From NCBI GenBank assembly GCA_964349125.1, contig CAYGFH010000004.1:42921-106920 (forward strand): 64,000 bases of DNA, in the 5' to 3' direction. The DNA is from an uncultured Gammaproteobacteria bacterium (GTDB taxonomy: Bacteria > Patescibacteriota > Microgenomatia > UBA10105 > UBA927). The translations under genes were made by a program, and so were the position numbers. Below the pieces are notes generated by a model, which worked only from the letters and a program-made list of their open reading frames with translations, was not told where the DNA came from and did not search any database. Of this stretch, positions 1,128-33,755 are shown in pieces (position 1 is the stretch's first letter; each line of letters starts with the position of its first letter).

Positions 1128-1134
1128 TTCGTTC

Positions 1135-1162
1135 TTGAAATACATATGACTATTGGTATACT
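1135..1162 (+). promoter_or_regulatory. sigma70-like promoter TTGAAA-16-TATACT upstream of the cohesin/dockerin gene
   Basis: -35 ttgaaa 1135-1140, -10 tatact 1157-1162, ATG at 1175 (very short leader). Confidence 0.45.
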
Positions 1163-1174
1163 CAACATATATAT

Positions 1175-5714: not shown

Positions 5715-5802
5715 TGCTGTTGTCATCCCCGACCCGATCGGGGATCAGTAGATCAAAGTAATTAATTTGATCCTCGCATTCGCAAGGATGACAAGAAAAC
5801 TT

Positions 5803-6684
5803 TTATATCTTCAGCCCTTTGAGGTAGGCCTTAAATTCACCGTTTAGCTCTTTGTGTGTAAGGGCAAATTCTATAACGGTTTTGAGGTATTCCAACTTGT
5901 TTCCTGTATCGTAGTACTTTGCGTTCTCAACCTCACACGCATATACAGGGCGTGTTTTCATAAGGTCTTTTATAGCATCCGTAAGCCAAATCTCGCCGGA
6001 TTTCCCAGGCTTTGTTTTTTCCAGATGCTCAAAGATGTCAGGTGTCAGCACGTAGCACCCATGTGCCGCGAGATTGGACGGTGCCTCATCTGCTTTTGGT
6101 TTTTCGAGAAGGTGATTGATTTGCCAGATATTCTTTTCCACATTAACGGCATCTACAATACCATATCTGGAGACATCCTCTTTAGGGACACGGACGGCTG
6201 AAATAACAGGATCACCATATTTTTCGAACACATCAATGCATTGTTTTGCACGTGGAGGATTGGAATGGATAAATTCATCTCCCCATATGGCGACAAACGG
6301 TTCGTTTCCTATCACCGATTTTGCACATAATACCGGCGTTCCATTACCATATGGTCCTTTTTGACGTATGTATATGAAATTGGCGAGCGCTGCCGTTCGT
6401 TTTACCTCTTCCATGAGCTCATATTTTTTCTGTTCCTCTAGCATTTTGATCAGTTCGTTTGGATTGTCAAAATGATCTTCAATAGCACGTTTATGCCACC
6501 CTGTGACGATAATAATGTCAGTAATTCCTGATGAGACCAATTCCTCTACAACGTACTGTATGACAGGCTTATCCACTATAGGAAGCATTTCCTTTGGCAT
6601 TGCCTTGGTTTGCGGCAAAAATCGTGTTCCGAATCCGGCAGCCGGTATAACTGCCTTCCTAATTTTCGAAGAATGTTTCATCAT
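5803..6684 (-). CDS. galU: UTP--glucose-1-phosphate uridylyltransferase
   Basis: N-terminal KAVIPAAGFGTRFLPQTKAMPKEMLPIVDKPVIQYVVEE is the canonical GalU signature. Confidence 0.85.
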   Translation of the reverse strand: MMKHSSKIRKAVIPAAGFGTRFLPQTKAMPKEMLPIVDKPVIQYVVEELVSSGITDIIIVTGWHKRAIEDHFDNPNELIKMLEEQKKYELMEEVKRTAALANFIYIRQKGPYGNGTPVLCAKSVIGNEPFVAIWGDEFIHSNPPRAKQCIDVFEKYGDPVISAVRVPKEDVSRYGIVDAVNVEKNIWQINHLLEKPKADEAPSNLAAHGCYVLTPDIFEHLEKTKPGKSGEIWLTDAIKDLMKTRPVYACEVENAKYYDTGNKLEYLKTVIEFALTHKELNGEFKAYLKGLKI

Positions 6685-6843
6685 ATTTTATTTGTCACTC
6701 CCGACGTCTATCGGAATCATCGAGCAAAAGATCCTCGATACACTTGGAACAGTAGGAAGCATAGGCTAATTGTATTTCCCTTTCATCCCCTTTGTCAATT
6801 TGATATCATAGACTGATAGAAGTTATCAAAACAATAATAATAT

Positions 6844-8748
6844 ATGTCTCACGATGATCACGGTCATGACAGCGGGCCACCCAAGCCGACTAATCCCTTC
6901 TTTATAATAGGCGTGATTTTATTTGTTGCTTTTTTTGCTTTACAGGTCCCCTCCGGTAAGAAGCCTTCAACAGGAATATCCCCTATATCCCAGCCAAGAA
7001 TAACTCCCACGAGAACCCAAGGCATACCAATTAAAGAAGAAGGTCCCACATACCAAAAATCCATATTAAATGAAGGAATGACCCCACCACCTGAAGCTGT
7101 TGTGACGCCTCAAGTCGCCGGAATCGCCCCCTGGGGGTATAAAATTCAATTCATGAACGCTGTATCCTCAGTGTTAAAAGAAGTAGAAGGAGTTTCGCAT
7201 CAGCAAAAATATACCATAAAAACACCAAATCTTGGTCCGGAGGCATATCAGATAGAAGAGGCGGGAGTCAGACTTACACCGAAAGAAATACAGGATTCAA
7301 ACTTACGCCTTATTACCTACCTTCAAAATTTAACCGCCAACCATACACAATGTTTTTACGATGAAGAAAATGGGTTCGAACATCATCCTGACGTTGGTAT
7401 ATTTAAAGCCGCTGCTCTCCGATGGCATTATGCGCGCGGTGGGTCAAAAATCCTACAGTCAACGATATCAACGGGACAACTGCCACTCGAGGGGTACGAT
7501 TTGTTCAATACACTGCCTGATGAGAAAGTAACGCCTGATAATGGCCTGGCATGCTACACACAGCACGAAGGAAAGTTCACGGGATTATATGAGCTAAGCA
7601 CGGGCGATGAAGAGTACGATGGAGCAAGCCACCCGCCAGCAACATGGACACCTGACCTGTTTTGCCCAAATGAGACACTCAAATACTTGGAATGCCTTGC
7701 TGAACAAGCCAGATGCAATGCGGCAACGAGGGCAAAAAATAAAAATAACGACTGCAGCGCAGACTACTGCTCACTTGTGTGCAGCGGTGATGCCCATACG
7801 GTGTATAGCACGAATCTGCCAGGCGCCATGAAAGAGAAGGATATTACGGATAATATCGGATATCTGCAACCGGGCAATCCGCAAGGATATACCTACACGC
7901 AGTTTGACGATGCATTCAACTTTAACAAAGAACACGGCATAAACGAACAAGGCCAAACAAATGAACTTATGATATTTTCAGGTGACATTCTTACAGAAAA
8001 ATCTGTGTATGCAGAACTTGCTCGTATTAAGGAACATATCCATGCATTCCAATGTGTACTCCTCCCAAAAGAAGCTCAAGACCCAAATGTACCATGCCCT
8101 ACTCCCGAGCCTGAGCAATCACTCGCCGGAATTCGCAATGAGGCTGATGCAGTCGAAGATCGAGAGCCCGCACAGTGCAGTGCCGGTAAGCCGATAAGCA
8201 ACGCAGTTTCACGGGGGGGTCTAGATGCCGCAATCACAGAGGCAGCAGCCTGGGCAAAAATACCGGCGTGTGTTTTGAGGGGTATAGCATTTATTGAAGG
8301 AGCAACCATTGAGATGGAAAAACCAGCATGTATACCAAACCAGTGTGGAGCAGCCGGGCCCTTTCAGATTAGTATTGGTCAAGATACCTGCGGCAAGAAG
8401 ACCTGTGATGAGTGTGGTCCAAATTGGAAAGGTCGAGCATGTAATGACGAATCGTGGGCATTAAAAAAAGCAGGCGGAACTGTTGCCGATGCGTGTAATA
8501 TTAAAATTGCAGCGAAGGCAGCTGCTGCCATCGTTGACGGAAAAGCAAATGGATTCGGTGTACCGTTCACTCACAATACATCTAGCTCAATTGCATCGCA
8601 AAAACGAACGATTATCACAGCAGCCGACGCGTACTACGGTGTGACCTCACCAATAGAACGCCTTGGTGGTCTCTCGTACGGCGAATATGTGTATAAAACC
8701 TGTGATCCATCGTATACCTCGCATGTTGAACATGGATTCCCGTATTAA
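6844..8748 (+). CDS. Membrane-anchored extracytoplasmic protein with Cys-rich C-terminal region resembling a lytic transglycosylase (SLT-like) domain
   Basis: N-terminal TM FFIIGVILFVAFFAL. C-terminal GIAFIEGAT...QCGAAGPFQI resembles the SLT catalytic E...AGAxGLMQ pattern. The rest has no recognisable motifs. Confidence 0.4.
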   Translation: MSHDDHGHDSGPPKPTNPFFIIGVILFVAFFALQVPSGKKPSTGISPISQPRITPTRTQGIPIKEEGPTYQKSILNEGMTPPPEAVVTPQVAGIAPWGYKIQFMNAVSSVLKEVEGVSHQQKYTIKTPNLGPEAYQIEEAGVRLTPKEIQDSNLRLITYLQNLTANHTQCFYDEENGFEHHPDVGIFKAAALRWHYARGGSKILQSTISTGQLPLEGYDLFNTLPDEKVTPDNGLACYTQHEGKFTGLYELSTGDEEYDGASHPPATWTPDLFCPNETLKYLECLAEQARCNAATRAKNKNNDCSADYCSLVCSGDAHTVYSTNLPGAMKEKDITDNIGYLQPGNPQGYTYTQFDDAFNFNKEHGINEQGQTNELMIFSGDILTEKSVYAELARIKEHIHAFQCVLLPKEAQDPNVPCPTPEPEQSLAGIRNEADAVEDREPAQCSAGKPISNAVSRGGLDAAITEAAAWAKIPACVLRGIAFIEGATIEMEKPACIPNQCGAAGPFQISIGQDTCGKKTCDECGPNWKGRACNDESWALKKAGGTVADACNIKIAAKAAAAIVDGKANGFGVPFTHNTSSSIASQKRTIITAADAYYGVTSPIERLGGLSYGEYVYKTCDPSYTSHVEHGFPY

Positions 8749-8807
8749 TTATTGACGTTCTGGTGGCGGTATTTACAAATCTGTTTATATTTGATATAGT
8801 ACCTATA

Positions 8808-8829
8808 TCCCCGGGAGGGGGTTTTTGTT
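8808..8829 (+). terminator. Weak rho-independent terminator after the 634-aa gene
   Basis: cccc-ggga-gggg hairpin followed by gtttttgtt. Confidence 0.35.
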
Positions 8830-8853
8830 AGTTATTTTCATGTGTTACAGGTC

Positions 8854-8882
8854 TTGGCGATATGCGACAACTTCGGTATAAT
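8854..8882 (+). promoter_or_regulatory. Promoter TTGGCG-17-TATAAT for leaderless secE
   Basis: -10 tataat 8877-8882 ends 6 nt before the secE ATG at 8889, implying a leaderless transcript. Confidence 0.45.
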
Positions 8883-8888
8883 ACAAGT

Positions 8889-9122
8889 ATGGAAAAGCCA
8901 ACAATACCGAAAGTGCAAAGTATCTCTGAACGACTCGGACGAAATGGACCAGTTACCTTTTTTCAGGAGGTTGTATCGGAACTCAAGAAAGTAACGTGGC
9001 CAAGTCGCGATGAAACAATGAAATTAACTGCTGTCGTTATTGCTCTTTCTGTCATTGTCGGTGTATTTATCGGCGGATTGGATGCAATACTAGTACAGGC
9101 ACAAAAAATGGTATTCAAATAA
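8889..9122 (+). CDS. secE: Preprotein translocase subunit SecE
   Basis: ELKKVTWPSRDET followed by a single TM helix (LTAVVIALSVIVGVFIGGLDAIL) is the SecE signature. The ORF-track start at 8862 is preceded by no promoter, and the -10 box lies inside it. Confidence 0.8.
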   Translation: MEKPTIPKVQSISERLGRNGPVTFFQEVVSELKKVTWPSRDETMKLTAVVIALSVIVGVFIGGLDAILVQAQKMVFK

Positions 9123-9202
9123 CGATACTGAATATTGGATTTTACGATGATTGAGGAAATCCGAACGTCGATAATCCACGATTTAGCATCAACTATTATA
9201 GT

Positions 9203-9829
9203 ATGACAGATCAACAGACAACCAAAAAGGAAGCACAATCAGAAGGATATGTCCATCCAAGTGCACCTCCTGTTTCCGAAAGTACAACTCCACGGGTAGC
9301 CCCATCGAACGCGAAATGGTATGTGGTTCATACATATTCAGGACATGAAAATAAAGTATCAGCAAATTTAAAACAGCGTATAGAGACCATGAAATTGCAA
9401 GATAAAATTTTCGATATCGTCGTGCCAACTCGCAATATCGTAACGGTTAAACATGGTAAAAAAGAAGAGCAAAAAGAAAAAATCTTTCCCGGATATATTC
9501 TGGTAAAGATGCTCCTTGAGGACGATTCCTGGCTGGCAGTCCGAACAACACAAGGCGTGACAGCATTTGTAGGAGTTGGAAACAAACCAACCCCTATCTC
9601 TGAGAGCGAAGTTGCGACGATTTTGAAATTCATGCAACTTGAAGCTCCAAAATACAAAACATCGTTCTCTACAGGCGAAGCAGTTAAGATCGTGGATGGA
9701 CCATTTGCTGATTTCCTTGGTACCATCGATTCTATCGATGAGGAGAAAGGCAAGATCAAAGTTCTCGTATCCATATTCGGAAGAGAAACTCCTGTCGAGT
9801 TAGACTTCTTGCAGGTCTCAAAGCTTTAA
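9203..9829 (+). CDS. nusG: Transcription termination/antitermination factor NusG
   Basis: NGN domain WYVVHTYSGHENKV...IFPGYILVKM and KOW GEAVKIVDGPFADFLGTIDSID. Conserved position after secE. Confidence 0.9.
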   Translation: MTDQQTTKKEAQSEGYVHPSAPPVSESTTPRVAPSNAKWYVVHTYSGHENKVSANLKQRIETMKLQDKIFDIVVPTRNIVTVKHGKKEEQKEKIFPGYILVKMLLEDDSWLAVRTTQGVTAFVGVGNKPTPISESEVATILKFMQLEAPKYKTSFSTGEAVKIVDGPFADFLGTIDSIDEEKGKIKVLVSIFGRETPVELDFLQVSKL

Positions 9830-10255
9830 ATTGGGATTATTCGCATTGCTATTTCACTGTTTTATTCTCCGTAATCGAGCACTGACGTCGCTTTGCGTTC
9901 GCTTGATGTTGATTTCAAACGTAACCCAGTCGCAGTGAGCAGAACTGCTTGCGACACGATTCATAGGCACCCAATATCTCAGATTGCTCAAATTCTGGAT
10001 CGGATTTCATTTAAACAGCTTTGCTTTTCGCGCAGAGTGTATGACGTGATATTACATCATTTAAAACATATACGATAAGAAACGAGGAAACATCTGCAGC
10101 GGAGTCTAACTCACGCGCGTTCTAGTTATAGAGTTATACGACGCTAGTACGGGCTGAATTCACGGCAACGTAATCGAATATTGGATTCTCTCTATCTTTT
10201 GAAACTATCCTAAAAGGATTTCGCTGGGCAACGAGTAAAACAAGGATACGTGCCA

Positions 10256-11476
10256 TTACAGCGATTTGTAGTATACGTAGGCACCAAATCCGACAGCAAC
10301 CAATATCATAATGAAGAGAAGCACTCCAAACCAATTAACTTTTGCACCGGCGATAACATTGAATGTCTGTGTCACCTGTCCCTGTCCATCATCTTTTTTA
10401 GATACTACAACCACATCTTTTTTGCCAGCGCTCAGCGCCTTATCTGGCCTCCAGGTCCACTTACCTGTGGTATCTGCCGTCACGGTACCGCTGATACCGT
10501 CAGGGAATACCGAGATAGTCACGGTGGCTCCAGGCTCTGTCATACCACTAAATGTCGGACGATCGGATGCGTTTCCATTTGTATCTCCAACGGATGATGC
10601 TGTCAGTACTATCTGTCTTCCTGATCCGATAGGATTAAGTTCATTTATGGTTGGGACAACCGAGAGTGATCCACCAGTCGGAGAATCGTTACAGAGACAG
10701 GATATATTTTCCTTACAATACGCATTTCGGCATGTTTTCCCTAAACCTAATACACCACCACCGGCGCATACTAAACCACCGGGGCATTCACTATCATTTG
10801 AACAGGATTTATTGCAATAATTAAGCACATAAACGGTTGGTGTCGGTGAGGATGTCATAAATACTGTCGGCTTTGGTGTCGCAGTATTGTACGAGACGCG
10901 GGTTGGCGTCGGCGTCTTCGTAGGTGTTTTTGTTGGTGTGCTCGAAGATGTCGGATACGGTGTGTATGTGGGATATGGTGTATATGTTGGCTGCACTGTC
11001 GGCACCGATGTTGGAGTATTTGATACTGCAGTTGTAGGTACAGGGCTGTTCGTAGGATATATACATGATCCCCAATATTCCCCGTTTGCGCATGCTGTCA
11101 TGTTTGTCGTCCACTGAGCTCCAGCAGATGGGCAGCAATATTTCTGACCACCACATAATCCTATTCTCCCTGCAGAATTACATAGTTGGACATCACCATC
11201 TGGCTCTGCTGGGCAATTCGTAACATTCACTATCTGCCAATACCCTCCGGATTGGCATTGATTACAGCTTGCAGAATTACAGGAAGCAGCTTTTTGCCGA
11301 TTATCTGTTGAACGACCAGCAGCCATTAGCAGTACAACAAGGGCAATCAGTAATCCAAATAATCCAATAAGTGCACCCAAATTTGGCCAAAGAACCGCAG
11401 AAGTGGAACGCGAAGAACGTACTCCGCGGGATACTTTTTTCTTTTTCGTTGATATTTTATTACTATACTTTGCCAT
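10256..11476 (-). CDS. Doubly anchored Cys-rich surface protein with PT/YTPYPT linkers and Ig-like domain
   Basis: N-terminal K/R-rich tail plus TM (LGALIGLFGLLIALVVLLMAA). Cys-rich modules, YTPYPTYTPYPT and TPTKTPTKTPTPT linkers. C-terminal TM FGVLLFIMILVAVGFGAYVYY. ATG at 11476 preferred over the GTG at 11491. Confidence 0.6.
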   Translation of the reverse strand: MAKYSNKISTKKKKVSRGVRSSRSTSAVLWPNLGALIGLFGLLIALVVLLMAAGRSTDNRQKAASCNSASCNQCQSGGYWQIVNVTNCPAEPDGDVQLCNSAGRIGLCGGQKYCCPSAGAQWTTNMTACANGEYWGSCIYPTNSPVPTTAVSNTPTSVPTVQPTYTPYPTYTPYPTSSSTPTKTPTKTPTPTRVSYNTATPKPTVFMTSSPTPTVYVLNYCNKSCSNDSECPGGLVCAGGGVLGLGKTCRNAYCKENISCLCNDSPTGGSLSVVPTINELNPIGSGRQIVLTASSVGDTNGNASDRPTFSGMTEPGATVTISVFPDGISGTVTADTTGKWTWRPDKALSAGKKDVVVVSKKDDGQGQVTQTFNVIAGAKVNWFGVLLFIMILVAVGFGAYVYYKSL

Positions 11477-11573
11477 CAATTCCGGTGACACGCTCTATGC
11501 ATCAGCCACCATATCTATAATCACGCAACTGCGTCAGAATTTCAAGTGTGGAAATTAGCCGTGAGAAGCATCT

Positions 11574-11602
11574 CTTGTCACACTCTGTAACTTCTGGTAT
11601 AC
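11574..11602 (+). promoter_or_regulatory. Strong sigma70-like promoter TTGTCA-17-TATACT for the rplK-rplA operon
   Basis: -35 11574-11579 and -10 11597-11602, about 145-nt leader before rplK. Confidence 0.55.
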
Positions 11603-11749
11603 TCACAGGTACTTCGTTCCGATATAGTATGTCGCGGATGAGGAAGAAACCCGATTGAGTGTTTCGAAAAACTGTATACCTTCTTCTCTATAATATAGTA
11701 TAGAAAGATACGTTCCTCTTTTTTTCGATCCCCTCTTTCAGATACTACT

Positions 11750-12178
11750 ATGGCAGCAAAAAAAGTTAAAACAATCATAAAAATCAATCTTAAAGCGGGC
11801 GAAGCAACCGCAGCGCCTCCAGTCGGGCCGGCTCTCGGACAGCATGGACTTCCTATCATGGAGTTCGTGAAAGCCTACAATGAGAGAACAGCAAAACTCA
11901 AAGGTCAGACCATCCCAGCGGTTATTACCGTATTTGAAGACCGGACCTTTACGTTTATCACCAAGCTCCCTCCTGTATCAGCCATGATCATCAAAACCCT
12001 CGGTATTGCCAAGGGTGGCGGCAAAGCAGGACGTGAGTCAGCGGGTAAACTTTCCAAGGATCAGGTTCGACAGATTGCCACAGACAAGTTGCCGGATATG
12101 AACGCAAACGATGTGGAAGCCGCAATTAAAGTAGTAAGTGGAACTGCCCGAAGTATGGGCGTTGAGGTGGAGGCATAA
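11750..12178 (+). CDS. rplK: 50S ribosomal protein L11
   Basis: MAAKKVKTIIKINLKAGEATAAPPVGPALGQHGLPIMEFVKAYN is canonical L11. Confidence 0.95.
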   Translation: MAAKKVKTIIKINLKAGEATAAPPVGPALGQHGLPIMEFVKAYNERTAKLKGQTIPAVITVFEDRTFTFITKLPPVSAMIIKTLGIAKGGGKAGRESAGKLSKDQVRQIATDKLPDMNANDVEAAIKVVSGTARSMGVEVEA

Positions 12179-12179
12179 T

Positions 12180-12989
12180 ATGGGAAAAATTCGTGTCGCT
12201 AAACTAGGTGATGAATCAGCAGAAAAAGAGCAGAAAAGAAAAGCTGAAGCCCGTCGCCAAACAAAAGAGTCAAAAAAAATAAAAACTGACGAGTCAGAGA
12301 CTGAAACTACAGCTGTTGTATCTGAAGTTTCCGAAAAATCTGAACCACAATCAAAAAAGAAAAAGGAAACAAACATCAAGGCAAAAGGCCATTCAAAAAA
12401 ATATATTGAGATGTCCTCTTTGGTTGATAAACAAAAGATTTATAGTATTTCTGAGGCTGTATCACTGGTAAAGCAGACCAGTCTCACAACTTTTGACGGT
12501 ACAGTTGAACTCCATATAAATGTGAACCCACAGACTCTGGGAGATAAGAAAGATCTGCGTGGCAGCGTGACGCTTCCCCACGGTACAGGAAAGCAAATCC
12601 GTGTGGTTATAGCTGATGAAGCGATTATTGCTGAGATAGAGGCCGGGAAAATTAATTTTGATATTCTCGTGGCGCACCCAAGCATGATGCCGAAGCTGGC
12701 AAAGGTAGCCAAAGTGTTGGGTCCGAAAGGACTTATGCCGAATCCTAAAAACGGTACGGTCTCCCCTGACCCTGAAAAACGTGTGAAGGATCTCTCAAAC
12801 GGCCAGGTAAACTTTAAAACAGAACCTGACAACCCAATTGTCCATATGATCGTTGGGAAAGTATCATTTGATGATGCGAAACTTGCTGAAAATGTCAAAG
12901 CAGTATTTGCTGCAATTGGCACAAGTAAGATCATCAGAACAACCATAACAGCAACCATGGGACCAGGTGTCAAAGTTGCAACCTCGTAG
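12180..12989 (+). CDS. rplA: 50S ribosomal protein L1 with ~65-aa Lys/Glu/Ser-rich N-terminal extension
   Basis: Core TLPHGTGKQIRVV...VLGPKGLMPNPKNGTV is canonical L1. ATG 12180 follows the SD ggaggtggagg. The ORF-track GTG start at 12138 overlaps rplK and is rejected. Confidence 0.9.
   Translation: MGKIRVAKLGDESAEKEQKRKAEARRQTKESKKIKTDESETETTAVVSEVSEKSEPQSKKKKETNIKAKGHSKKYIEMSSLVDKQKIYSISEAVSLVKQTSLTTFDGTVELHINVNPQTLGDKKDLRGSVTLPHGTGKQIRVVIADEAIIAEIEAGKINFDILVAHPSMMPKLAKVAKVLGPKGLMPNPKNGTVSPDPEKRVKDLSNGQVNFKTEPDNPIVHMIVGKVSFDDAKLAENVKAVFAAIGTSKIIRTTITATMGPGVKVATS
12935..12988 (+). repeat. Direct repeat copy 1 (intact 3' end of rplA) bounding an inserted element
   Basis: 54 bp, 50/54 identical to 16471-16524. 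Confidence 0.85.
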
Positions 12990-13002
12990 TATTTCGTACC
13001 AT

Positions 13003-13031
13003 TTGCGTTACTTAGTCCTATAGTTTATAAT
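13003..13031 (+). promoter_or_regulatory. Possible promoter TTGCGT-17-TATAAT for leaderless ATPase gene
   Basis: Perfect -10 at 13026-13031, 7 nt before ATG 13039; -35 is weak. Confidence 0.3.
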
Positions 13032-13038
13032 TGCGCGC

Positions 13039-16000
13039 ATGAGTCGCGAAATGATGTCTCCGTTGGCCGGTTCCATTATGATTGATGGGGTCGATCCCTT
13101 TTTACCTCCAGAAAGCATGGAGCACATGCAATTTGATGATGCTATTTTACGTCGCCAAAGAATTATATTTTCATCAGAAATCGTACCGAGTATTCAAATA
13201 TTCTTATCTGGGGGCACAAACGAAGAAAGACAAGACGCTTATGCAAAACTGTCGTTCGCATTATGGGGTATATATAGATTAAAAAATATTCAAACGGAAT
13301 CTGAATATCCGTGGGAACAGTCTTGGCTTGCCTCTCAGGGACAATCAGAATGGACACCGAATCTGATAGAAAAGTCCCCTTCACAATATGAAATGGCACA
13401 TACCTATTTTTCAAACCTACTGATACCAGCAGATGTATTGGACAGTATGGATTTGCTTCACCTTTCCCAAAAAGAACATTCAGGAATACAGGGGGTTAAA
13501 AAAATCATACATGACAGCACATCACAATTTTTAGCAAGTTTACCGACCGACGCAATGATTACATTTGGCATGGAAGCATTGTCAACTACATTCGCCAATT
13601 CCAATGACTCAATCAGAACAATTGTCACGTCAGCCTTATATCCCCTGATAACCCAATACAAAGCGCAACACTCCAGTGTTGTGTATCATTTCGCTAATCA
13701 GATGCGGGTTGCACGCGAATATGTCACCTCGGTACTTAAAAACTTTTTCGACTCACCCCTGCGCCAACAGTTACTGTCAGAGACGATGAATATACATGAT
13801 CTTGATGCCGCTCATGTTGTAAGCAGTGGATTGTCTGCTGCACTTGACGAGCACGCGTTTACTACTGGATTGCTTCAGTTTAAAAGCACGGTACACGGTC
13901 AAAAAAATGGGGGCATTCTCGCATCTGCTGCATTTTTGACTCCTTTCCCCTTTTTCTATACACAGGCTAGTACCCGCATCGGAGAGCTACTTCGCACACG
14001 TATTGCGTCCAGAAACATTCACGAAATCGCGCCGTCACTTACCGAAAAACACGCCAGAGTCCGCGAAGCGGCATATGCATATCTAAACTTACCTGAATCT
14101 GCAGACATTGCAGAAATACAAAAAGCAGAAGCTAAAATAATTGAGGCAGGCAATACACGGAACCTCTCGCTACTTAGAACGAATCAGCAAACATCTAAAG
14201 ATCGCGCCTGGTTTAAAAGCCTACCGTCGAGCATAGCGTTATTATTGTCCGCTACACGAAATGACGAGCTCATCCAATATGTAACCCCTGTCGCACTTAC
14301 AAGCGGCTCTATGCTAACGGCAATAGGTGACAGCACATCAATGCTCGTTATGCGAAGTATAAACCGAGCGGATACCGATGCCGCCTACACGACCGTCCGA
14401 CAAGCACTTACTCATCTCACAAAACGATTTGGAGAGTTACACCTACCACCTCCCGGGACTGATTATGGTCCATTACCCAATCGAATAACTGTGACCATAA
14501 ATCGCACGAAAAACGGTCAGTTGCCAGTGTTTTCTCAATTACAGTTAGATCCGGGTATAACCGTGTTGACAGGAGAAACCGGTAAAGGAAAATCCACCGT
14601 GATGGATATCATTCACGGAATACACGCACTCGGAAACTACGCCACCATAAACGCTGCCGATATGAATGATATTAGAAATTTCTACGCGTATGACCGTTGG
14701 CAACGTCGTGTAAAGACGGTCTCGGTCAACTTCTCTTTCGGCAGCACACTATCGAGTGAAATCACTCGAAAAATAGTAGCTGGAGAACATGATGGTATTC
14801 AACGAACGATCAATGACTTATTAAGTGACGAACATTCTAATCATCAATATTTGTCACATCTGCTTGACTTATTGACTGATCCGTTAAAAAATCATGAACT
14901 TGCAACCGTACTAGAATCCTGGAAGCAGTCATTATCAACAGAAACGCATACAGAACAGACTCAACCGCTCATAGCCGCGCTTAATGCAGTAATTAAGCAA
15001 TATTTTTCTCAATTCTTTGACGCGAATGAACATGATCGTATAGATCAATTCATGACGACAACCTTTTCAACGAACATGGCAGCTTCTACCGGACAACGAG
15101 CACGAATTGGCCTCGCATTATCGCTTATGTCAGATGCCGATATGTATTTATTCGATGAGATTTCAGGAAACCTAGATACCAAAACCACCGTAAAAATTGC
15201 AGATATACTTCTACAATTCATTGCATCACATAAACAATCGAAATTTATACTTTCTATTCATGATCCAATATTTCTTAATAAAATTTGGGCGTTTGGACCA
15301 CAAAGAATATACGACTTTGATACCTCATCTGTTTGGGAAAACTCTACTGATGTTGAAAATTTTGTGGATACAATACAAAGCAGGATACTACAGACGGAGC
15401 AGGCACAGTCATTTACAGCTGAATCTGCACATGAGTTACTACAGGCACTTTCACATCATCTTGACGCATGGGATAAGGAGAGTCTCAATGAATACACCCT
15501 CGAACAATTAATACATACGGTTGATATTGTACGGGTTATGTTATCAAAGACGAATATGCATGTATTACAGCATAATATCAACCCATCCGCTCGATTTGAT
15601 GAGTATTTTGATAGTGTGATTGCCCCGATTCACAAAACGCTATATCGCATCGCGGACACAGTATTTACTAAGCGCATTTGGGAACTGCTCAAGAATAATA
15701 ATACAATGCCCTGGTATACACTCAATCAAATTCACAAGCTCGTATGGCAAATGAATCAAATTGGACTGATCTCAAAAGGCATCATTCCTGAATCAACAAG
15801 AACGGCTCGAGATTATTCTAAAGATGCATTTTTTAATTGGCAGGACTATGTTCGTGGTAAACGAGTCATGGTAAAAGATTTTACAGGACTCGCTAACCAT
15901 AAATACCAGGTAAAATCACTATTTGCAGATACAACATTTGAAAGAAATATTCGACATCTTCGTATAAATCATCTTGCAAAAATATTTTCCGACTTCAGAT

Positions 16001-16407
16001 CTACACCATCATATATCACACAGACTGTTTCTACAAAACTGTTACGAAGTGATTTGCTGTCCGGATTACTTTCAGGTAGCGCAGTATCCAATCAATCGAA
16101 CTACGGAATGGATATATTAGGTCAAAGAGTGTCGAGACTGGTGGCTCACTTACTCATGGAAGTGAAGACCAATCCTGTGTTTGCCGAGGAGACCGAACGC
16201 ATTATACGTAACATTACGACAGAGATCTTGCCGGATTTTTTGAAGCAGCGGGGTGTAAAAATGACCAACGTATCACAATGGATGTCTCATTGGGTGGCTC
16301 AAAACGATCCTCGCGTTCAGTCTATTTTGTTAACGGAACTGCCGAAATATCCGTCTATAGCACATGAATATATTTCTCTGCTTAAAAAATGTGATCAGAT
16401 ACGATAG
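13039..16407 (+). CDS. Large (1122 aa) soluble protein with central ABC-type ATPase domain (RecF/SMC/AAA_21-like) flanked by ~490-aa N- and ~370-aa C-terminal regions of unknown function
   Basis: Walker A ITVLTGETGKGKSTV, signature-like STGQRARIGLALSL, Walker B/D-loop MYLFDEISGNLD and H-loop FILSIHD in the expected order and spacing; no TM segments. Confidence 0.7.
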   Translation: MSREMMSPLAGSIMIDGVDPFLPPESMEHMQFDDAILRRQRIIFSSEIVPSIQIFLSGGTNEERQDAYAKLSFALWGIYRLKNIQTESEYPWEQSWLASQGQSEWTPNLIEKSPSQYEMAHTYFSNLLIPADVLDSMDLLHLSQKEHSGIQGVKKIIHDSTSQFLASLPTDAMITFGMEALSTTFANSNDSIRTIVTSALYPLITQYKAQHSSVVYHFANQMRVAREYVTSVLKNFFDSPLRQQLLSETMNIHDLDAAHVVSSGLSAALDEHAFTTGLLQFKSTVHGQKNGGILASAAFLTPFPFFYTQASTRIGELLRTRIASRNIHEIAPSLTEKHARVREAAYAYLNLPESADIAEIQKAEAKIIEAGNTRNLSLLRTNQQTSKDRAWFKSLPSSIALLLSATRNDELIQYVTPVALTSGSMLTAIGDSTSMLVMRSINRADTDAAYTTVRQALTHLTKRFGELHLPPPGTDYGPLPNRITVTINRTKNGQLPVFSQLQLDPGITVLTGETGKGKSTVMDIIHGIHALGNYATINAADMNDIRNFYAYDRWQRRVKTVSVNFSFGSTLSSEITRKIVAGEHDGIQRTINDLLSDEHSNHQYLSHLLDLLTDPLKNHELATVLESWKQSLSTETHTEQTQPLIAALNAVIKQYFSQFFDANEHDRIDQFMTTTFSTNMAASTGQRARIGLALSLMSDADMYLFDEISGNLDTKTTVKIADILLQFIASHKQSKFILSIHDPIFLNKIWAFGPQRIYDFDTSSVWENSTDVENFVDTIQSRILQTEQAQSFTAESAHELLQALSHHLDAWDKESLNEYTLEQLIHTVDIVRVMLSKTNMHVLQHNINPSARFDEYFDSVIAPIHKTLYRIADTVFTKRIWELLKNNNTMPWYTLNQIHKLVWQMNQIGLISKGIIPESTRTARDYSKDAFFNWQDYVRGKRVMVKDFTGLANHKYQVKSLFADTTFERNIRHLRINHLAKIFSDFRSTPSYITQTVSTKLLRSDLLSGLLSGSAVSNQSNYGMDILGQRVSRLVAHLLMEVKTNPVFAEETERIIRNITTEILPDFLKQRGVKMTNVSQWMSHWVAQNDPRVQSILLTELPKYPSIAHEYISLLKKCDQIR

Positions 16408-16470
16408 TTTAAAATCTTTTGGTCCATCTGTCTGTTTCATTTAAAAAACATAAATGTATCTCCGCCGCTT

Positions 16471-16524
16471 CAAAACAACGATAACAGCAACCATGTGAAC
16501 AGGTGTCAAAGTTGCAACCTCGTA
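16471..16524 (+). repeat. Direct repeat copy 2 (degenerate pseudo-copy of rplA 3' end)
   Basis: 54 bp with 4 mismatches to 12935-12988; contains an in-frame TGA. Confidence 0.85.
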
Positions 16525-16568
16525 ACAGTTGACACTGGATCTGCTACAGTAGTGTATACTCATATCGT

Positions 16569-16787
16569 ATGGATATACCAGACTCATCCACAGAGTATCA
16601 AACACCCGTTCCCGATACTACAGTCTCTGCAGAACCTGTTACGGCTCCGTTCCAACTGAGCGAAGAGGAGAGAAAACGCGCAAAAATGATGATGCAATTG
16701 CAGGGAGCACATCAATTTTTCGCTACCATATCCAAAGGCTTACTCAAAATACTGGAAGATCTCTCATCCCACATCCTCAAGAGATAG
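16569..16787 (+). CDS. Small hypothetical protein (72 aa)
   Basis: ORF only; acidic N-terminus and a predicted helix; no motif. Confidence 0.3.
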   Translation: MDIPDSSTEYQTPVPDTTVSAEPVTAPFQLSEEERKRAKMMMQLQGAHQFFATISKGLLKILEDLSSHILKR

Positions 16788-16864
16788 TATCAGGTATCAT
16801 TGACATTTCTCCTGGCCTCTGAGATTCTATAGTGAGTATTAATATTAATATTTTCAGGCTAGCT

Positions 16865-18298
16865 ATGAAAAAAAATTCTATAACACCAATAACACTTATC
16901 GCTATCATCGTTTTGGCCGGAGGGGCCATGTTCCTACTCAATAGCAAACTAAACACGACATCCACCGAAGTTACCAAATCACAAGCATCTATGGCTGTAC
17001 CTAAGATTACTGAGACGTATAGTGATAATTTTAAGACGGAGGCACTCAATCAGAACAAATGGTCTATCAGTAAATCCTCGGACGTTTCAGCAGCACAAAC
17101 AGCAGGTAACAATCTTCGGATACAAATTCCTGAGGGAAATCAATCCGGTAAGCCAAAGACTGCATCGATCTTATTTAAGGAACACATGAAAGATAATGCC
17201 GATTTCAAAGCGATAGCAGTTCTCTATCGCCCAATTGTTACCGGAGCTGGTGGAGCTATTGAAGGATTGAGGTTTACTTCTAAAGGTGGACTAAACGATG
17301 AAGGCGCTTCAATTCGTTGGGTTGTCAATGGTGCTTCGAGTAAGGTTTCGTTTTCTGTTGCGGCCACGGATGGAACGGTTGTCGAAAGAAAATCCGTTGA
17401 TCTTCCGAGTAATGTGGCTATTTTCAGACTTGAACGAGTAAATAAATCGTATAGGGCATCTTATAAACTGGGAAATGATTTAACTTCTGATACTAACTGG
17501 ATTGTCCTAGGTGAAGAAACAAATGCTGCGCTCGGGGCAGACGGGTATGTGAGCCTTTTTGCTCATAACGGTGCCGTAAATAATCAGTTTCCGAAGGTAG
17601 CTGCACGATTTGATACAGTCAGAATCAGCTGGGAAGGAAAAGCTGCTCAGCCTTCTAACCGTATAAGCTATTCTGACGCATTCAGCAATGGGAGTATTGG
17701 TGGCAAATGGAAAGCATCTGCGACAACTGGAACAGCAATTGTTGAAACAGCAACGGATAATCTGTCGATGAATGTAGCTGCTGGAGCCGTGAATACCAAA
17801 CCACGGTCAGGGTGGGTAAAGAGAACTGAGCCGTTAGTCAAAAACAATACGAATTTCGCATTTACTGCTAAACTTTTTAAGCCCGTTGTAAAGGGAGATG
17901 GGTACGGTGTCTCAGCAGTATCGTTCCAGTCTGCAACCGCTGTTGATGACGAATCTGCTGCGGTGCGTTGGGTCGTCTCAAAAAATGAGAATGTAAGTAA
18001 ACTCGTATTCGTGGTAAAAGCACCGGATAATACGCTCCTTGAACGCGCCAGTATAGATATCAAGAATGCAGACCCCAAACGCCTGACTTTGCGTCTTACA
18101 CGAACTGGAGATAAATATTCAGCTGCCTATAGAGTCGGTGATAGCGATACAGACTTTGTATCAATCGGCAAGGAAGAAAACGGCCAGTTGGGGGCAGATG
18201 GACGCATAGTGCTTTCGACCAACAATACCGGTATAGGAAATAAGTATCCTCAGGTAATCGGCCGATTTGATTCTGTTACAGGGTGGGTTGCGAAATAA
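16865..18298 (+). CDS. Secreted/anchored protein with two tandem ~190-aa homologous beta-rich domains
   Basis: Signal anchor ITLIAIIVLAGGAMFLL. Two internal repeats share IRWVV-G/K-S-V-F-V...TDGTV/DNTLLER...FRL/LRLTR...Y-A-YK/RVG-D...LGADG...FP/YPQV.ARFDTV/GRFDSV. ATG 16865 preferred over GTG 16832. Confidence 0.6.
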   Translation: MKKNSITPITLIAIIVLAGGAMFLLNSKLNTTSTEVTKSQASMAVPKITETYSDNFKTEALNQNKWSISKSSDVSAAQTAGNNLRIQIPEGNQSGKPKTASILFKEHMKDNADFKAIAVLYRPIVTGAGGAIEGLRFTSKGGLNDEGASIRWVVNGASSKVSFSVAATDGTVVERKSVDLPSNVAIFRLERVNKSYRASYKLGNDLTSDTNWIVLGEETNAALGADGYVSLFAHNGAVNNQFPKVAARFDTVRISWEGKAAQPSNRISYSDAFSNGSIGGKWKASATTGTAIVETATDNLSMNVAAGAVNTKPRSGWVKRTEPLVKNNTNFAFTAKLFKPVVKGDGYGVSAVSFQSATAVDDESAAVRWVVSKNENVSKLVFVVKAPDNTLLERASIDIKNADPKRLTLRLTRTGDKYSAAYRVGDSDTDFVSIGKEENGQLGADGRIVLSTNNTGIGNKYPQVIGRFDSVTGWVAK

Positions 18299-18299
18299 A

Positions 18300-18678
18300 T
18301 GTCACGAAAGTGGGAAAAGTAACAGAAAGTGCATCTGTACCTGTGGAGTTCAGATTCCCTTCCTCTTGAATGTATAGCCGATTTGCGCTATACTATACTC
18401 ACCCTAAAGATAGTAGGTTTCGCCTGTAAGGCGAATGAATTCGAAAGAGCCTACCGAAGGAACATAAGTAGTTAACGGTTTTTGTTTATAGTTCATAGTG
18501 ATACTATGACCAATGAACAAATAACCCTGAACGAATGTTTCCCGCTTTAGGCGGGATTTTTTGTGAATACTTAGCGAGTTTATTCCTATAAACGAGCTTA
18601 GTATGAACAATCCAGCGTAAGCTGGATACAGCTTGAAATATATCTAGCGAAGCTAGAAACATTATGTAAAGGAGATAT
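18300..18678 (+). promoter_or_regulatory. Structured rplJ 5' leader (L10-leader-like) with internal attenuator hairpin
   Basis: Conserved position upstream of rplJ; hairpins tcgcct-gtaa-ggcga, cccgc-tttag-gcggg plus T-run, and ccagc-gtaa-gctgg. Confidence 0.35.
18538..18563 (+). terminator. Attenuator/terminator hairpin in the rplJ leader
   Basis: cccgc tttag gcggg followed by attttttg, about 115 nt before the rplJ ATG. Confidence 0.45.
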
Positions 18679-19215
18679 ATGGACAAAAAACATGTAACAA
18701 AAGGAACACCGAAGAAAGTGGAAACAGTAGCTGCTCTTACCGATAAAATCGGCAAAACAAAATCAATCGTTATTGCGCAGTACCAGGGTATAAAACATAA
18801 ACAGCTTGAAGAGCTCCGACGTGCGCTTCGAAAAGTGGATGGCGAATTTGTAGTAGCGAAAAACCGCCTGTTCAAAAAGGCGCTTGGAGATCAGGCAGCC
18901 TCTCTGGAAGCACAGCTCGAACAACCAAATGCATTTTTATTTGCATACAAAGATGAAGTATCCCCTCTCAAGGAAATGCTTAAGATGTTCAAAACTCTGG
19001 GCATCGGTAAAGTAAAAGGCGGACTGCTTGGAACCAAAGTGCTCACAGATACTGAAGTAATGACCCTATCAACAGTGGAAAGCAAAGAAGTATTGCTTGG
19101 CAAGCTGGTAAGACAGCTGAATGCGCCTGTACAGGGCCTCCACAGAGCACTTCAATGGAATTTGAATACACTTGTGTGGGTACTTGATGCAGTAAGAAAG
19201 ACAAAGGCAAACTAA
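18679..19215 (+). CDS. rplJ: 50S ribosomal protein L10
   Basis: KSIVIAQYQGIKHKQLEELRRALRKVDGEFVVAKNRLFKKAL is canonical L10. Confidence 0.9.
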   Translation: MDKKHVTKGTPKKVETVAALTDKIGKTKSIVIAQYQGIKHKQLEELRRALRKVDGEFVVAKNRLFKKALGDQAASLEAQLEQPNAFLFAYKDEVSPLKEMLKMFKTLGIGKVKGGLLGTKVLTDTEVMTLSTVESKEVLLGKLVRQLNAPVQGLHRALQWNLNTLVWVLDAVRKTKAN

Positions 19216-19276
19216 TTTTTATTTTACAATTTTCAATTTTTATTGACTATTGTTTTAAGGGAGGTGACAACAAATT

Positions 19277-19663
19277 ATGGCAAAATTAACTAAAGATGAA
19301 ATCATGGCGGCAGTGGAAGAAATGTCCGTATTGGAACTTTCTGAACTCGTCAAAGCTCTTGAAGAAAAATTTGGTGTCTCAGCAGCTCCGGTAGCAGTTG
19401 CAGGTGCCGCACCAGCAGCAGCAGGAAGTGCAGAACCAAAGGAAGAGCAAACCGTGTTTAACGTGGTAATAACAGCAGCCGGTGCAAACAAGATCGGTGC
19501 TATTAAAGCTGTTCGTGAACTCGTTCCAACTCTTGGCTTGCAAGAAGCAAAAGCACTTGTAGAAGCAGCTCCAAAAGAAGTCTTAACAGCTGTAAATAAA
19601 TCAGCAGCAGAAGAGGCAAAGAAAAAACTGGAAGCAGCAGGTGCATCAGTCGAACTCAAGTAA
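19277..19663 (+). CDS. rplL: 50S ribosomal protein L7/L12
   Basis: [34 protein letters not shown], Ala-rich hinge, C-terminal domain ending VELK. Confidence 0.95.
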
Positions 19664-19708
19664 CATTGAATTCGAGTATAGATAACTGAGGTTATGTATT
19701 CACTATTA

Positions 19709-19732
19709 ATCCCCCGCAAGGGGGATTTTTAG
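19709..19732 (+). terminator. Rho-independent terminator after rplL
   Basis: ccccc-gcaa-ggggg hairpin followed by atttttag. Confidence 0.7.
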
Positions 19733-19771
19733 TGGCTGTTGTGTTGTTTGTACGCTATAATACCTCCCACA

Positions 19772-20596
19772 ATGGCAATTGAGAGGGATAGCGGACTACT
19801 TACAGCACCATCGTCAGCGGGGGAAATACATCGAGGCTACATGCTCCCCGGTGAGACAGTGGTAATTGTCGGGCAAGGTCACACTTGTCTGAATGATCAA
19901 ACAGCATTACTGTATTGCTCAATGGCCTATGAAACCCAAGGAGCTGTACTTTTGGTTGATCCGCAGGGACGTAACTTTTCCGATGACCGTACAGTGTTGA
20001 AACGGCGAAATAGCGGGATCATATACGGTGAAGGCGGCGCGCTTGACTATCGTGATGAAATAATTGCGCTCGCACAATTGGGAATGCCACTGATAATACC
20101 CGAGTGGCTTGGGCGCGATAGCACCACTTTTCATATACCCATCGCTAAGTCATCTGTACACAAAATTGTGGACCACAATACCACGGGATTTCTGGCAATA
20201 TGCACGAATGCTGACAGATCTATGCCGGAACCCCATCACAAAAAGGCAGCCGATGTCATTCGCACAGCGCTCAGGGAATATCACCGTGTGCTCATGATAG
20301 GTGGCACCATTATGTACCAGGCAAATATGGAAGTACTCTCCGAAGCGGGAATACTGTCTCCAGAAGGATTTATAGACATAGCAGATACAATGGGGTTTAC
20401 CACATCACAGTACCGTACTGTTGATCGTGTGCAAATCCCAGTCCCTCCGCAACTATCGGCCCGGTTCTCAGAATCGCGGACACGCGGAATCGGGCAGATG
20501 TATTACCATATACAGGATTCATCAAGTGGTAGTTACTTTATAAAAGATGCGATATATACCAGTCCGGATTTTTTTGTCTGTACCAAATCTAGGTAA
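19772..20596 (+). CDS. Hypothetical protein occupying the position where rpoB normally follows rplL
   Basis: ATG 19772 is preceded by tataat at 19756-19761; the ORF-track TTG start at 19739 overlaps the -10. No recognisable motifs. Confidence 0.45.
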   Translation: MAIERDSGLLTAPSSAGEIHRGYMLPGETVVIVGQGHTCLNDQTALLYCSMAYETQGAVLLVDPQGRNFSDDRTVLKRRNSGIIYGEGGALDYRDEIIALAQLGMPLIIPEWLGRDSTTFHIPIAKSSVHKIVDHNTTGFLAICTNADRSMPEPHHKKAADVIRTALREYHRVLMIGGTIMYQANMEVLSEAGILSPEGFIDIADTMGFTTSQYRTVDRVQIPVPPQLSARFSESRTRGIGQMYYHIQDSSSGSYFIKDAIYTSPDFFVCTKSR

Positions 20597-20733
20597 TATC
20601 CCCATTTCTCCCATTTGTTAGCAGCAAACTAGTTGTCCTGCTAACAAAGCATTGTCTTTATTTCCCGCATCACTAACGCTGTTTTAGGCTGTCAAAACGC
20701 GCTCTCTCACGATGACCGCTAATGGCATATATT

Positions 20734-20810
20734 ATCCTGAGAACTATAAGCTGATATCAATTGATATACTCATTTTCCCTTCACCGCATACGCGGTAATA
20801 TTCTCAGGAT
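20734..20810. repeat. 77-bp element with 10-bp terminal inverted repeats (atcctgagaa / ttctcaggat) enclosing a 14-bp perfect palindrome atatcaattgatat
   Basis: Read directly from the sequence in the AT-rich non-coding region 20597-21237. Confidence 0.5.
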
Positions 20811-21237
20811 GGGTGCAATGTCTAAAATCTCTCAATGAATTTGAACAATTGGTACTGAAGACATTCTGTATACACTTCCCCACCATCCTGATAATTTTTT
20901 GCAACAATGACGAATATTTATTACTCTATATGACAATGATTTTATATCTAATTGAATACTTTTATTTTGTTACATGTCTTTATAGAGGATACGCCTCTCT
21001 GTATTGTCGTTTTACTGATGTCGTCGCCGTCATGATCAGCACTCATCAGTGCACTCAAAAATATTTTATAAAATCATTTCTATAAACCATGATTGCGTTT
21101 GATCCCTCTTGACAAGGTTTGATCATGGTTGTATTGTTGTGATTGCTATTGATTACTTTAAATTTTTCTTATAAATTTTAAAGTATGAACTGCCCTACAG
21201 CTTACATACAAAACATTTTGCCCCGGAGGAACTATCT

Positions 21238-26854: not shown

Positions 26855-26881
26855 GTGCGTAATTATATACAGAGTCTTCTT

Positions 26882-27739: not shown

Positions 27740-27786
27740 AGTGTCGCTCCTTTCAAGGCTATGCCTTATATTTTTATACGTGTCAG

Positions 27787-29640: not shown

Positions 29641-29748
29641 GGTATCATCATACCCCAACAGATATAACTCCGTCTATATACCCCAGGAGCGCTTGACAAA
29701 ATACTATTCCATACTCCAGACTTAGACTGATTACCCAGGTTGCGGTGT

Positions 29749-31629: not shown

Positions 31630-31798
31630 ATGCAATCTATTGCATACTCCTAACATCCACACCTTTATTCAGCTTTGACGTCTGCAACGATGTCATCATA
31701 TCTGTTACCTATTGCTGAGATTTTTTACATTTCCGTAAGACACAGATATTGAGAAGTATATCTTGTATATTTATATATATTGTTATACTATTTACAAC

Positions 31799-32176: not shown

Positions 32177-32193
32177 TCAGGAACATCCACTTA

Positions 32194-33036: not shown

Positions 33037-33105
33037 AGAAGCAAGATGTAAACAAAGCAAAGCCTTCTCTGCCTTGGATTGTCCAAAAAAGCTTAACTTT
33101 GAATA

Positions 33106-33750: not shown

Positions 33751-33755
33751 ATATT

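Follow-up and report, generated by a model that had tools for sequence, protein, structure and literature searches.

Why does the 3' end of rplA occur twice, with a single long gene in between, in the genome of an uncultured bacterium of the Patescibacteria? We asked this question of a stretch of 64,000 nucleotides (nt; positions 42,921 to 106,920 of contig CAYGFH010000004.1, assembly GCA_964349125.1), hereafter the window, in which the gene for ribosomal protein uL1 is followed by an ATPase gene and then by a second, broken copy of its own end. Comparison with related loci, cited below by L-numbers, indicates that the ATPase gene arrived as a cassette bringing a replacement rplA end, and that another cassette has used the same landing place in other hosts. 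To integration by a recombinase acting in trans we give about even odds.

The rplA end is duplicated around a single gene

The live rplA gene (12180-12989, plus strand, 269 amino acids (aa); Pfam Ribosomal_L1 1.2e-32, NCBIfam rplA_bact 3.2e-55) has its final 55 nt (12934-12988, copy 1) repeated at 16470-16524 (copy 2), with 51 of 55 positions identical in a direct-repeat search. A preliminary description of this DNA had placed the repeat at 12935-12988 with 50/54 identity; it is the same repeat, and only its extent had to be revised. A 41-nt core, allowing up to 3 mismatches, is found at these two sites of the window only, compared with 0.00 expected in 100 shuffles, and a 23-mer from the core is absent from IMG/VR. 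Copy 1, which is attL-like and encodes RTTITATMGPGVKVATS, is followed by the G that completes the TAG stop (12987-12989) and closes rplA in frame. Copy 2, which is attR-like (16470-16525 on the plus strand, stop included), translates as ...KTTITATM-stop-TGVKVATS, with an in-frame TGA at 16496-16498 and a final TAA at 16523-16525; both the completed gene and the broken copy had been recognized before. Three of the four differences between the copies alter the product of copy 2 (R to K, G to stop and P to T), while copy 1 retains the conserved R, G and P. The two copies share synonymous codons, unlike the rplA end of L003, a near relative presented below.

Between the repeats there is one open reading frame (ORF) only, at 13039-16407 on the plus strand. 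It is the intact 3369-nt gene of the preliminary description and encodes a 1122-aa ABC-type ATPase (Pfam ABC_tran 1.1e-8). Upstream, a promoter can be read as TTGcgt-17 nt-TATAAT (13003-13031, plus strand), whose TATAAT (13026-13031) lies 7 nt 5' of the ATG, as had been noted, with no Shine-Dalgarno sequence; the transcript is probably leaderless. The -35 element is weak, matching 3/6, and the site is therefore not listed in a consensus promoter scan. The right flank of the cassette (16408-16469, plus strand, 62 nt) resembles neither rplA nor the native spacer. The insert is thus bounded by attL/attR-type direct repeats of the 3' end of its target gene, with rplA kept intact, and a repeat search found no terminal inverted repeats at its ends.

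Both junctions were found again in separate contigs and assemblies. The left one is present in L001 (ENA ERZ27247817), which matches window positions 10351-15187 with 1 mismatch, and the right one in L100, another contig from the same sample (15182-19252, 100%), and in L101 (Logan ERR3094293; 15248-18658, 100%), copy 2 being exact in both of the latter. Therefore, a misassembly, which the preliminary description had asked to be excluded, is very unlikely.

Two further sequence similarities were considered. The junction between insert and relic (16462-16475, CCGCCGCT followed by TCAAAA) is complementary at 13/14 positions to 16238-16251 in the 3' coding region of the ATPase gene, 210 nt upstream; 18 complementary pairs of that kind occur in 8 kb, and this one is probably due to chance. 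Far from the insert, a repeat at 51551-51601 and 53289-53339 falls in the parts of two adjacent sensor genes that encode the C-termini and was set aside as apparent paralogy.

The insert displaced the original rplA end

We asked which of the two copies is the original one. The relatives of this rplA are metagenome-assembled genomes (MAGs) of Patescibacteria, mostly Gottesmanbacteria, and a neighbour-joining tree of rplA has the form (L098,(L003,(L002,window))). Within that clade the ATPase gene follows rplA in L098 and in the window only. L003 presents an empty site, with the order rplA-orf73-p481-rplJ and no ATPase gene, where orf73 and p481 are orthologs of the two genes that follow copy 2 in the window, orf72 and p477. 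In L006, more distant and outside the clade, an orf72 homolog directly follows rplA, and in L002 one is found after a different insert. Copy 2 upstream of orf72 has the position that the live rplA end has upstream of orf73 in L003. The flanks of both are similar (TAACA...TGTATAyt...ATCGTATGGAT), with promoter and start block aligned, and the TAA stop is common to L003, L002 and copy 2.

The positional match in L003 and the adjacency in L006 together indicate that rplA-orf72 is the ancestral arrangement, that copy 2 is the original rplA end and that copy 1 came with the insert. This agrees with the preliminary proposal of an insertion, relative to the ancestral state, that supplied a replacement gene end. 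Its author had also reasoned that an arrangement carried by all relatives would speak for an ancient fixed structure; L003 and L006 are both without the ATPase insert, so the proposal is not refuted on this count.

We also looked at the age of the insertion. At four-fold degenerate sites of nusG, rplK, rplA, rplJ and rplL the window differs from L002 and L003 by 53-61%, near saturation, whereas the repeat copies differ by 7-9%. Therefore, the insertion took place long after the lineage of the window had separated from its closest sampled relatives. It is nevertheless old enough for a nonsense mutation to have arisen in the relic, during which time the 3.4-kb cargo ORF has remained intact. A metagenome scan with rplA returned nearest relatives at about 63-72% identity and recovered no same-species empty site.

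A second cassette occupies the same site

A cassette of about 0.47 kb, consisting of a strong promoter and an ORF of 120-139 aa without known domain (ORF120), sits in the rplA end of L020 (10809-11321, identical in L067 and L068), L102 (1090-1650) and L103 (290-835). In L104 (700-1180) its neighbours are a kinase-like gene, the reading frame of which enters the left end of the cassette, and the L10 leader. The termini of the cassette are conserved, CTCTC(TC)TTGACA... on the left and ...stop-AACAAAYT-CYYTCTCYTCC on the right. In L020, rplA ends with ...MGPGIKLAVE-stop and is followed by TTGACA-17-TATAAA, the 120-aa ORF and a relic ending ...SSIMGPGIKVQIL-stop, of the KVQ type (KVQIL-stop) typical of its clade. 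L102 has the live end KLAVV-stop and the relic TLSATMGPGVKIAVA-stop, next to the L10 leader and rplJ, and L103 has KLAVE-stop and SSTMGPEIKIQV-stop. The relics thus carry host-type ends (KVQIL-stop, KIAVA-stop and KIQV-stop), and the DNA encoding the replacement end of the cassette, KLAV[EV]-stop, is conserved from host to host.

The live and relic ends of L102 are 81% identical over 47 nt, with 6 synonymous and 0 non-synonymous differences over 11 codons. Because the differences are all synonymous, these are two different genuine rplA ends, one from the cassette and one from the host. L102 thus gives direct support to the idea of a replacement gene end, independently of the window.

Moreover, the cassette is much less diverged than its surroundings. 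At four-fold sites of ORF120, 6/43 to 11/47 differ among genomes (14-26%), against 29/50 to 69/102 (58-68%) in the adjacent rplA and 34/46 in rplJ (Fisher p 5e-7 to 1e-5), a synonymous divergence 3-5 times under that of the flanking rplA. The cassette-less L045 is nearer to L020 than L103 is. As its four-fold divergence is far below that of the flanking rplA, ORF120 has moved horizontally between diverged hosts, to the same landing place. In the window, similarity to rplA reaches back to -56; in L020 and L103 it is firm to -47, with a weak gapped extension to -55/-56.

The cargo is an unusual ABC exporter-like ATPase of a very rare family

To the cargo protein Pfam assigns ABC_tran in its middle part only (36 bits, cut-off 25), with SMC_N and AAA_23 under their cut-offs. 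The sequence has a Walker A motif (GETGKGKST near aa 514), an ABC signature (STGQR near aa 683) and a Walker B motif (near aa 702-707), and profile matches in the PDB are to nucleotide-binding domains (NBDs) of the ABCB type (1e-18). An AlphaFold2 model built on a 6-sequence alignment (predicted local distance difference test, pLDDT, 65) has six long helices at aa 144-467, an NBD at about aa 480-770 and a helical, poorly modelled C-terminal region of about 340 aa. The top PDB matches in Foldseek were the type IV ABC exporters MsbA, CydDC, Atm1 and IrtAB (E about 1e-11, 650-700 columns, TM-score 0.4-0.5 on the target). The cargo therefore resembles type IV exporters in its ABC motifs, in its closest NBD matches and in the predicted alignment of six helices plus NBD to half-transporters. 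It differs from them in its extra C-terminal helical region and in having no hydrophobic transmembrane helix: the maximum 19-aa Kyte-Doolittle window is 1.25, and Pfam ABC_membrane does not match. Judging from the model, we infer an ABC exporter-like ATPase that may be soluble or weakly membrane-associated. Codon usage and GC content of the gene are host-like.

Other assignments did not hold. An ABC-F factor would have two tandem NBDs connected by a linker and no further large domain, where the cargo has a single NBD, and the NCBIfam ABC-F matches are partial and far under their cut-offs. The PADLOC matches to the defence genes mad3, LmuB, AriA and PtuA span generic ABC motifs only, and we therefore do not class the cargo as a defence gene. 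Searches with the ATPase in the viral contigs of IMG/VR and in phage and plasmid records returned nothing.

An exhaustive HMMER search of 1.84e9 representatives gave five full-length relatives (1048-1198 aa, 21-28% identity), all singletons from Logan assemblies, which with the window protein (P0001) make a family of six. A word-indexed homolog search returned the query itself only, and a profile search, dominated by CydCD-type ABC transporters, returned no family member. One relative, P0004, is encoded directly 3' of rplK-rplA in L098 (1313-5388) and is 21-23% identical to the window ATPase. In both loci the distance from the rplA stop to the first ATG of the ATPase is 49 nt, and a promoter block is shared (CCTATAGTtTATAAT, 13017-13031 in the window; CCTATAGTnTATAAT); similar blocks occur in L096 and L097. 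The L098 contig stops 10 nt past its ATPase gene (...TAGATCAAAACCT), so that any relic would lie beyond the contig end; the TCAAAAC found past the stop resembles the start of the window relic but is too short to interpret. The closest pairs in the family are P0001 with P0002 and P0004 with P0003, and because of this the two rplA-linked ATPases, P0001 and P0004, are not sisters. P0002, P0003 and P0006 have unrelated contexts, and no flanking direct repeats were found around the homologs in L095, L096 and L097. ATPases of about 1100 aa that are exporter-like without transmembrane hydrophobicity form a very rare family, with two of its six known members at the rplA end.

The rplA-rplJ spacer is variable, and one further gene-end duplication was found

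The distance between rplA and rplJ ranges from 1 nt to 4.4 kb in about 90 loci, and this spacer is a hotspot. In L002 it holds genes for proteins of 676 aa and 506 aa that are unrelated to the ATPase; as candidate kin of it they were rejected at an hhalign probability below 1%. A relic scan of all rplA-rplJ spacers returned the window and the L020-type cases only, and relic-like matches in L036, L037 and L054 were artefacts of stop-codon calling. Separately, we noted an IS200-like (Y1) transposase gene inside the spacer of L005 (3324-4037).

A generic scan for gene-end duplications in about 1.1 Mb of fetched loci gave one further case, L026, a Daviesbacteria MAG. Here a glycoside-hydrolase-like gene (953-1981) is followed by a single 485-aa gene (1994-3451) and by a relic of the hydrolase 3' end (3480-3601; 122 nt, 91% identical, still in frame). 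Most other direct repeats in that scan were palindromic intergenic elements or terminators. The repeat lengths of the cases are 32, 55 and 122 nt. In each of the three cassette types (window, ORF120 and L026) the cargo is one complete gene, which ends 2-62 nt before the relic.

Other repeats of the fetched loci were recorded on the way. In L026 another IS200-like (Y1) transposase gene (6301-7072) has 40-nt flanking direct repeats, 97.5% identical, each with a hairpin. A 100-nt AT-rich palindromic element occurs in the secE-nusG and rplK-rplA spacers of L066, a Gottesmanbacteria-like contig (1457-1556 and 5575-5674). In L018 (1137-2043) and L040 (5987-6875) a minus-strand PaaX-like gene with a Cas2-like central domain separates nusG from the Big-domain gene; it is flanked on both sides by 37-nt direct repeats, which hold a GCGGCCGC-centred palindrome.

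A recombinase acting in trans may have inserted the cassettes

We asked how the insert reached the rplA end. What we observe is its geometry and polarity, its young age compared with the host splits, the recurrence of the site and the horizontal movement of ORF120. From these we infer a circular intermediate and a site-specific enzyme, in a Campbell-type integration at a defined site in the rplA end by a recombinase supplied in trans, a reading of the sequences that we put at roughly 50%. The incoming unit would be a circle of 3,536 bp with a mimic of the rplA end of about 55 nt, a promoter, one ATPase gene and a 62-nt tail. A single reciprocal crossover within the last ~55 nt of rplA would let the cassette-borne end terminate the live gene (copy 1, TAG). 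The host end would be pushed 3.5 kb downstream, to decay upstream of orf72 (copy 2, TGA and then TAA). The attachment site recognised by the recombinase would lie over the conserved part of the rplA end that encodes TMGPG, and other small single-gene cassettes of related Patescibacteria would use the same site. Under this scheme the empty site should read rplA ...CCTCGTAA joined directly to CAGTTGACAC, and the junction of the free circle ...TCTCCGCCGCT + 55-mer + GTATTTCGTACC.

We favour a recombinase in trans because unrelated cargos share the site with similar limits, because the cargo units are tight single genes, and because ORF120 crossed species and integrated at ends that are 81% identical; 81% identity over 47 nt, as in L102, is a poor RecA substrate. 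The enzyme would have to act in trans as the cassette encodes none: the insert holds the ABC ATPase ORF only, in line with the absence of an integrase already stated in the preliminary description. A Pfam scan of the insert and of the window ORFs of at least 150 aa, all but a few overlapping or opposite-strand ones of that size, gave no recombinase domain (Phage_integrase, Resolvase, Recombinase or DDE). Likewise, no integrase-bearing element was seen at rplA in roughly 100 fetched loci, which are loci and not whole genomes.

Several observations weigh against this reading. There is no recombinase gene in the insert, in the scanned ORFs of the 64-kb window or beside the related cassettes. The ATPase cassette is complete in one instance only, as the L098 contig ends early. 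In the L020 and L103 relics the similarity between -47 and -56 is weak and gapped. L026 allows a more generic, less site-specific mechanism. Finally, the window copies are 93% identical, synonymous sites included, which makes homologous recombination with DNA of a very close relative feasible.

This last point leads to the strongest rival, which we consider unlikely but serious, namely acquisition driven by homology from a close relative that already had rplA followed by the ATPase. RecA would have catalysed a single crossover of a circularised fragment, or homology-facilitated illegitimate recombination would have been anchored in rplA. The repeat would then simply represent the part of rplA that the fragment contained, and it would end on the right where donor and recipient cease to be syntenic. 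The 51/55 identity of the copies with the same synonymous codons, unlike those of L003, fits such a donor, as do the host-like codon usage of the ATPase gene and the existence of the rplA-ATPase adjacency in the clade (L098). Three further observations point the same way: in the window, L020 and L026 the repeat ends on the right at the stop codon or just short of it, L026 has the same geometry at another gene, and the spacer is generally variable (1 nt to 4.4 kb). However, random fragment ends would not predict a cargo of a single gene 2-62 nt from the relic every time, nor that two unrelated cassettes have similar left limits, close to -55. Moreover, ORF120 integrated at the 81%-identical ends of L102 and crossed hosts whose synonymous divergence is saturated, and the window ATPase is not the sister of that of L098.

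Alternatively, the repeat could be a long target duplication created by illegitimate insertion, through staggered breaks or template switching resembling microhomology-mediated break-induced replication (MMBIR), of incoming DNA without any rplA sequence. Near-identical copies, as if both were host-derived, a repeat length that varies (32, 55 and 122 nt) and the lack of a recombinase or transposase would suit this view. It is nevertheless improbable, as the live end in L102, L103 and L020 is a distinct, cassette-associated rplA end, so the incoming DNA carried one. There are also no terminal inverted repeats, and insertion inside the last 5 codons would have been needed by chance in three cases out of three.

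Slightly more improbable still is an old vertical arrangement, in which the ATPase gene already followed rplA in the common ancestor of the window and L098 and later disappeared from L003 and L002, the repeat being kept by gene conversion or by a function of copy 2. The position, spacing and promoter block common to the two rplA-linked ATPases would be accounted for, and deletion between the repeats would restore a perfect empty site. Yet these ATPases are not sisters, copy 2 has one nonsense and two non-synonymous changes, and a difference of 7-9% is incompatible with saturated host divergence unless conversion is invoked; the rplA-orf72 adjacency, moreover, exists also outside the clade, in L006. 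Last, repeats can misjoin metagenome assemblies, but a chimeric join at the repeated 55-mer is next to negligible considering junctions reproduced at 99.98-100% identity (L001; L100, L101), copies that differ at 4 positions and an intact ATPase ORF of host-like codon usage.

Integration by a recombinase in trans can be carried further, to an integron-like system of rplA-end cassettes in Gottesmanbacteria-like Patescibacteria. Its recombinase-less units of 0.47-3.5 kb, each with one gene, its own promoter and a mimic of the rplA end of ~55 nt, would be exchanged between species by a chromosomal recombinase acting in trans. We put this forward tentatively, as a possibility that we judge rather doubtful.

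Comparison with known mobile elements

In streptococci, integrative and conjugative elements (ICEs) that have tyrosine integrases insert at the 3' ends of rplL, rpsI and rpmG (PMC4701971). The view of the preliminary description that ribosomal-protein insertion sites are rare thus does not hold in general. Their direct repeats span 12-54 bp and cover the exact gene end only (PMC4701971). The rplA insert shares with these ICEs and with integrative and mobilizable elements (IMEs; PMC4701971, PMC5357655) a ribosomal-protein 3' end as target, last in its operon, a repeat of comparable length (55 bp here), an element-supplied end that preserves the gene product, and empty sites in relatives. It differs in having no integrase, relaxase or other mobility gene, in its size (3.5 kb with one cargo gene, the sister cassette 0.47 kb), in the target rplA and in its Patescibacteria host. 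Of the features by which ICEs and IMEs are recognized, the unoccupied site in relatives is thus present (L003, L006) and an element-encoded integrase is absent. Repeated use of the site with horizontal movement is seen for ORF120 (L020, L102, L103); for the ATPase cassette there are the window and the incomplete L098.

Cis-mobilizable elements (CIMEs) retain attL and attR and have lost their mobility genes (PMC5704250). The insert is like a CIME in its att-like flanking repeats, in having no recombination or transfer genes and in that it would need a recombinase in trans. Unlike a CIME, it has no decayed mobility genes in its flanks of 49 nt and 62 nt, and its limits closely enclose a single intact gene and the promoter of that gene; the ORF120 sister cassette, too, looks like a compact mobile unit and not like debris. 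We know of no cognate autonomous element with rplA specificity.

Gene cassettes of integrons are small single-ORF units, probably circular when free, that enter one fixed site by means of a recombinase encoded elsewhere. Different cargos at one site are the point of likeness; however, neither an imperfect palindrome of the attC type nor intI, attI or Pc lies nearby, the cassettes have their own promoters, and the site mimics the end of a host gene. Integrative mobile elements exploiting Xer (IMEX) have no integrase and are integrated at dif by the host tyrosine recombinase XerCD. The rplA insert is comparable in its integrase-less integration and differs in that the coding end of rplA is targeted and no dif-like site was identified. 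Both are functional analogies only. A transposon or insertion sequence was rejected, given that there is no transposase, there are no terminal inverted repeats, and the repeat is 55 nt (32-122 nt elsewhere) and not of a short fixed length. A narrow literature search found no description of rplA-end cassettes in Patescibacteria.

Gene order and other features of the window

The region upstream of the insert contains secE (8862-9122), nusG (9203-9829), a Big-domain gene on the minus strand (10256-11491) and rplK (11750-12178). The uL1 protein has a Lys/Glu-rich N-terminal extension of about 70 aa (12180-12400) that is common to Gottesmanbacteria-like relatives. Downstream of copy 2, an extended -10 element (TGTATACT, 16553-16560, plus strand) precedes orf72 (16569-16787, plus strand, 72 aa), the small native gene and ancestral rplA neighbour whose homologs follow rplA in relatives. 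The next gene, p477 (16865-18298, plus strand), encodes a protein that is secreted or anchored in the membrane, contains two internal repeats and is 56% identical to its L003 counterpart. It has no Pfam match and is native, outside the cassette.

The rplJ promoter reads TTGAAT-17 nt-TATACT (18366-18394, plus strand) and is followed from about 18400, on the same strand, by an L10-leader-like element (CCCTAAAGATAGTAGG...CCTACCGAAGGAA) upstream of rplJ. The Rfam L10_leader match is weak for the homologous L104 region (26.9 bits, under the gathering score of 44), and an Rfam scan of window positions 8000-21000 gave nothing at E<=1. The rplJ gene (18679-19215, plus strand) is the downstream limit of the variable spacer, and rplL follows (19277-19663).

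Elsewhere in the window, three adjacent genes (48-3989) encode cohesin and dockerin domains, which is unusual for Patescibacteria, with internal DNA repeats at 76-169/322-415 and 203-320/638-755. A pentose-phosphate cluster (25865-40105) comprises genes for transaldolase, transketolase, ribulose-phosphate 3-epimerase, a 6-phosphogluconolactonase-like protein, 6-phosphogluconate dehydrogenase and glucose-6-phosphate dehydrogenase. A 28-nt palindrome, TTGTCATCCCCGACCyGATCGGGGATCA, occurs twice with 27/28 identity, just after a YkuD-family gene (5720-5747) and in the linker of the transketolase ORF between the N-terminal and pyrimidine-binding domains (28724-28751). An intergenic motif of ~50 nt, built of GCGATTTACGATT- or GCGTTTAGCG-like units, is found at 33787-33836, 38577-38626 and 43970-44019 with 62-76% identity. 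Two of its copies immediately precede genes of the minus strand (rpe and a LytR_C-domain gene), and the motif may be a regulatory site.

Significance for gene gain in Patescibacteria

Genomes of Patescibacteria (CPR) are tiny, and how they gain genes is poorly understood. The rplA locus offers a concrete, sequence-defined route of gene gain, in which single genes with their own promoters enter the conserved rplA end, the essential gene is repaired by the new end that the cassette brings, and no integrase travels along. If a recombinase in trans is responsible, these units would represent a new minimal class of mobile cassette, and potentially a site-specific integration tool for genetically intractable organisms. 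Should the cassette system itself prove true, the rplA-rplJ spacer would be an integron-like hotspot for accessory genes in reduced genomes.

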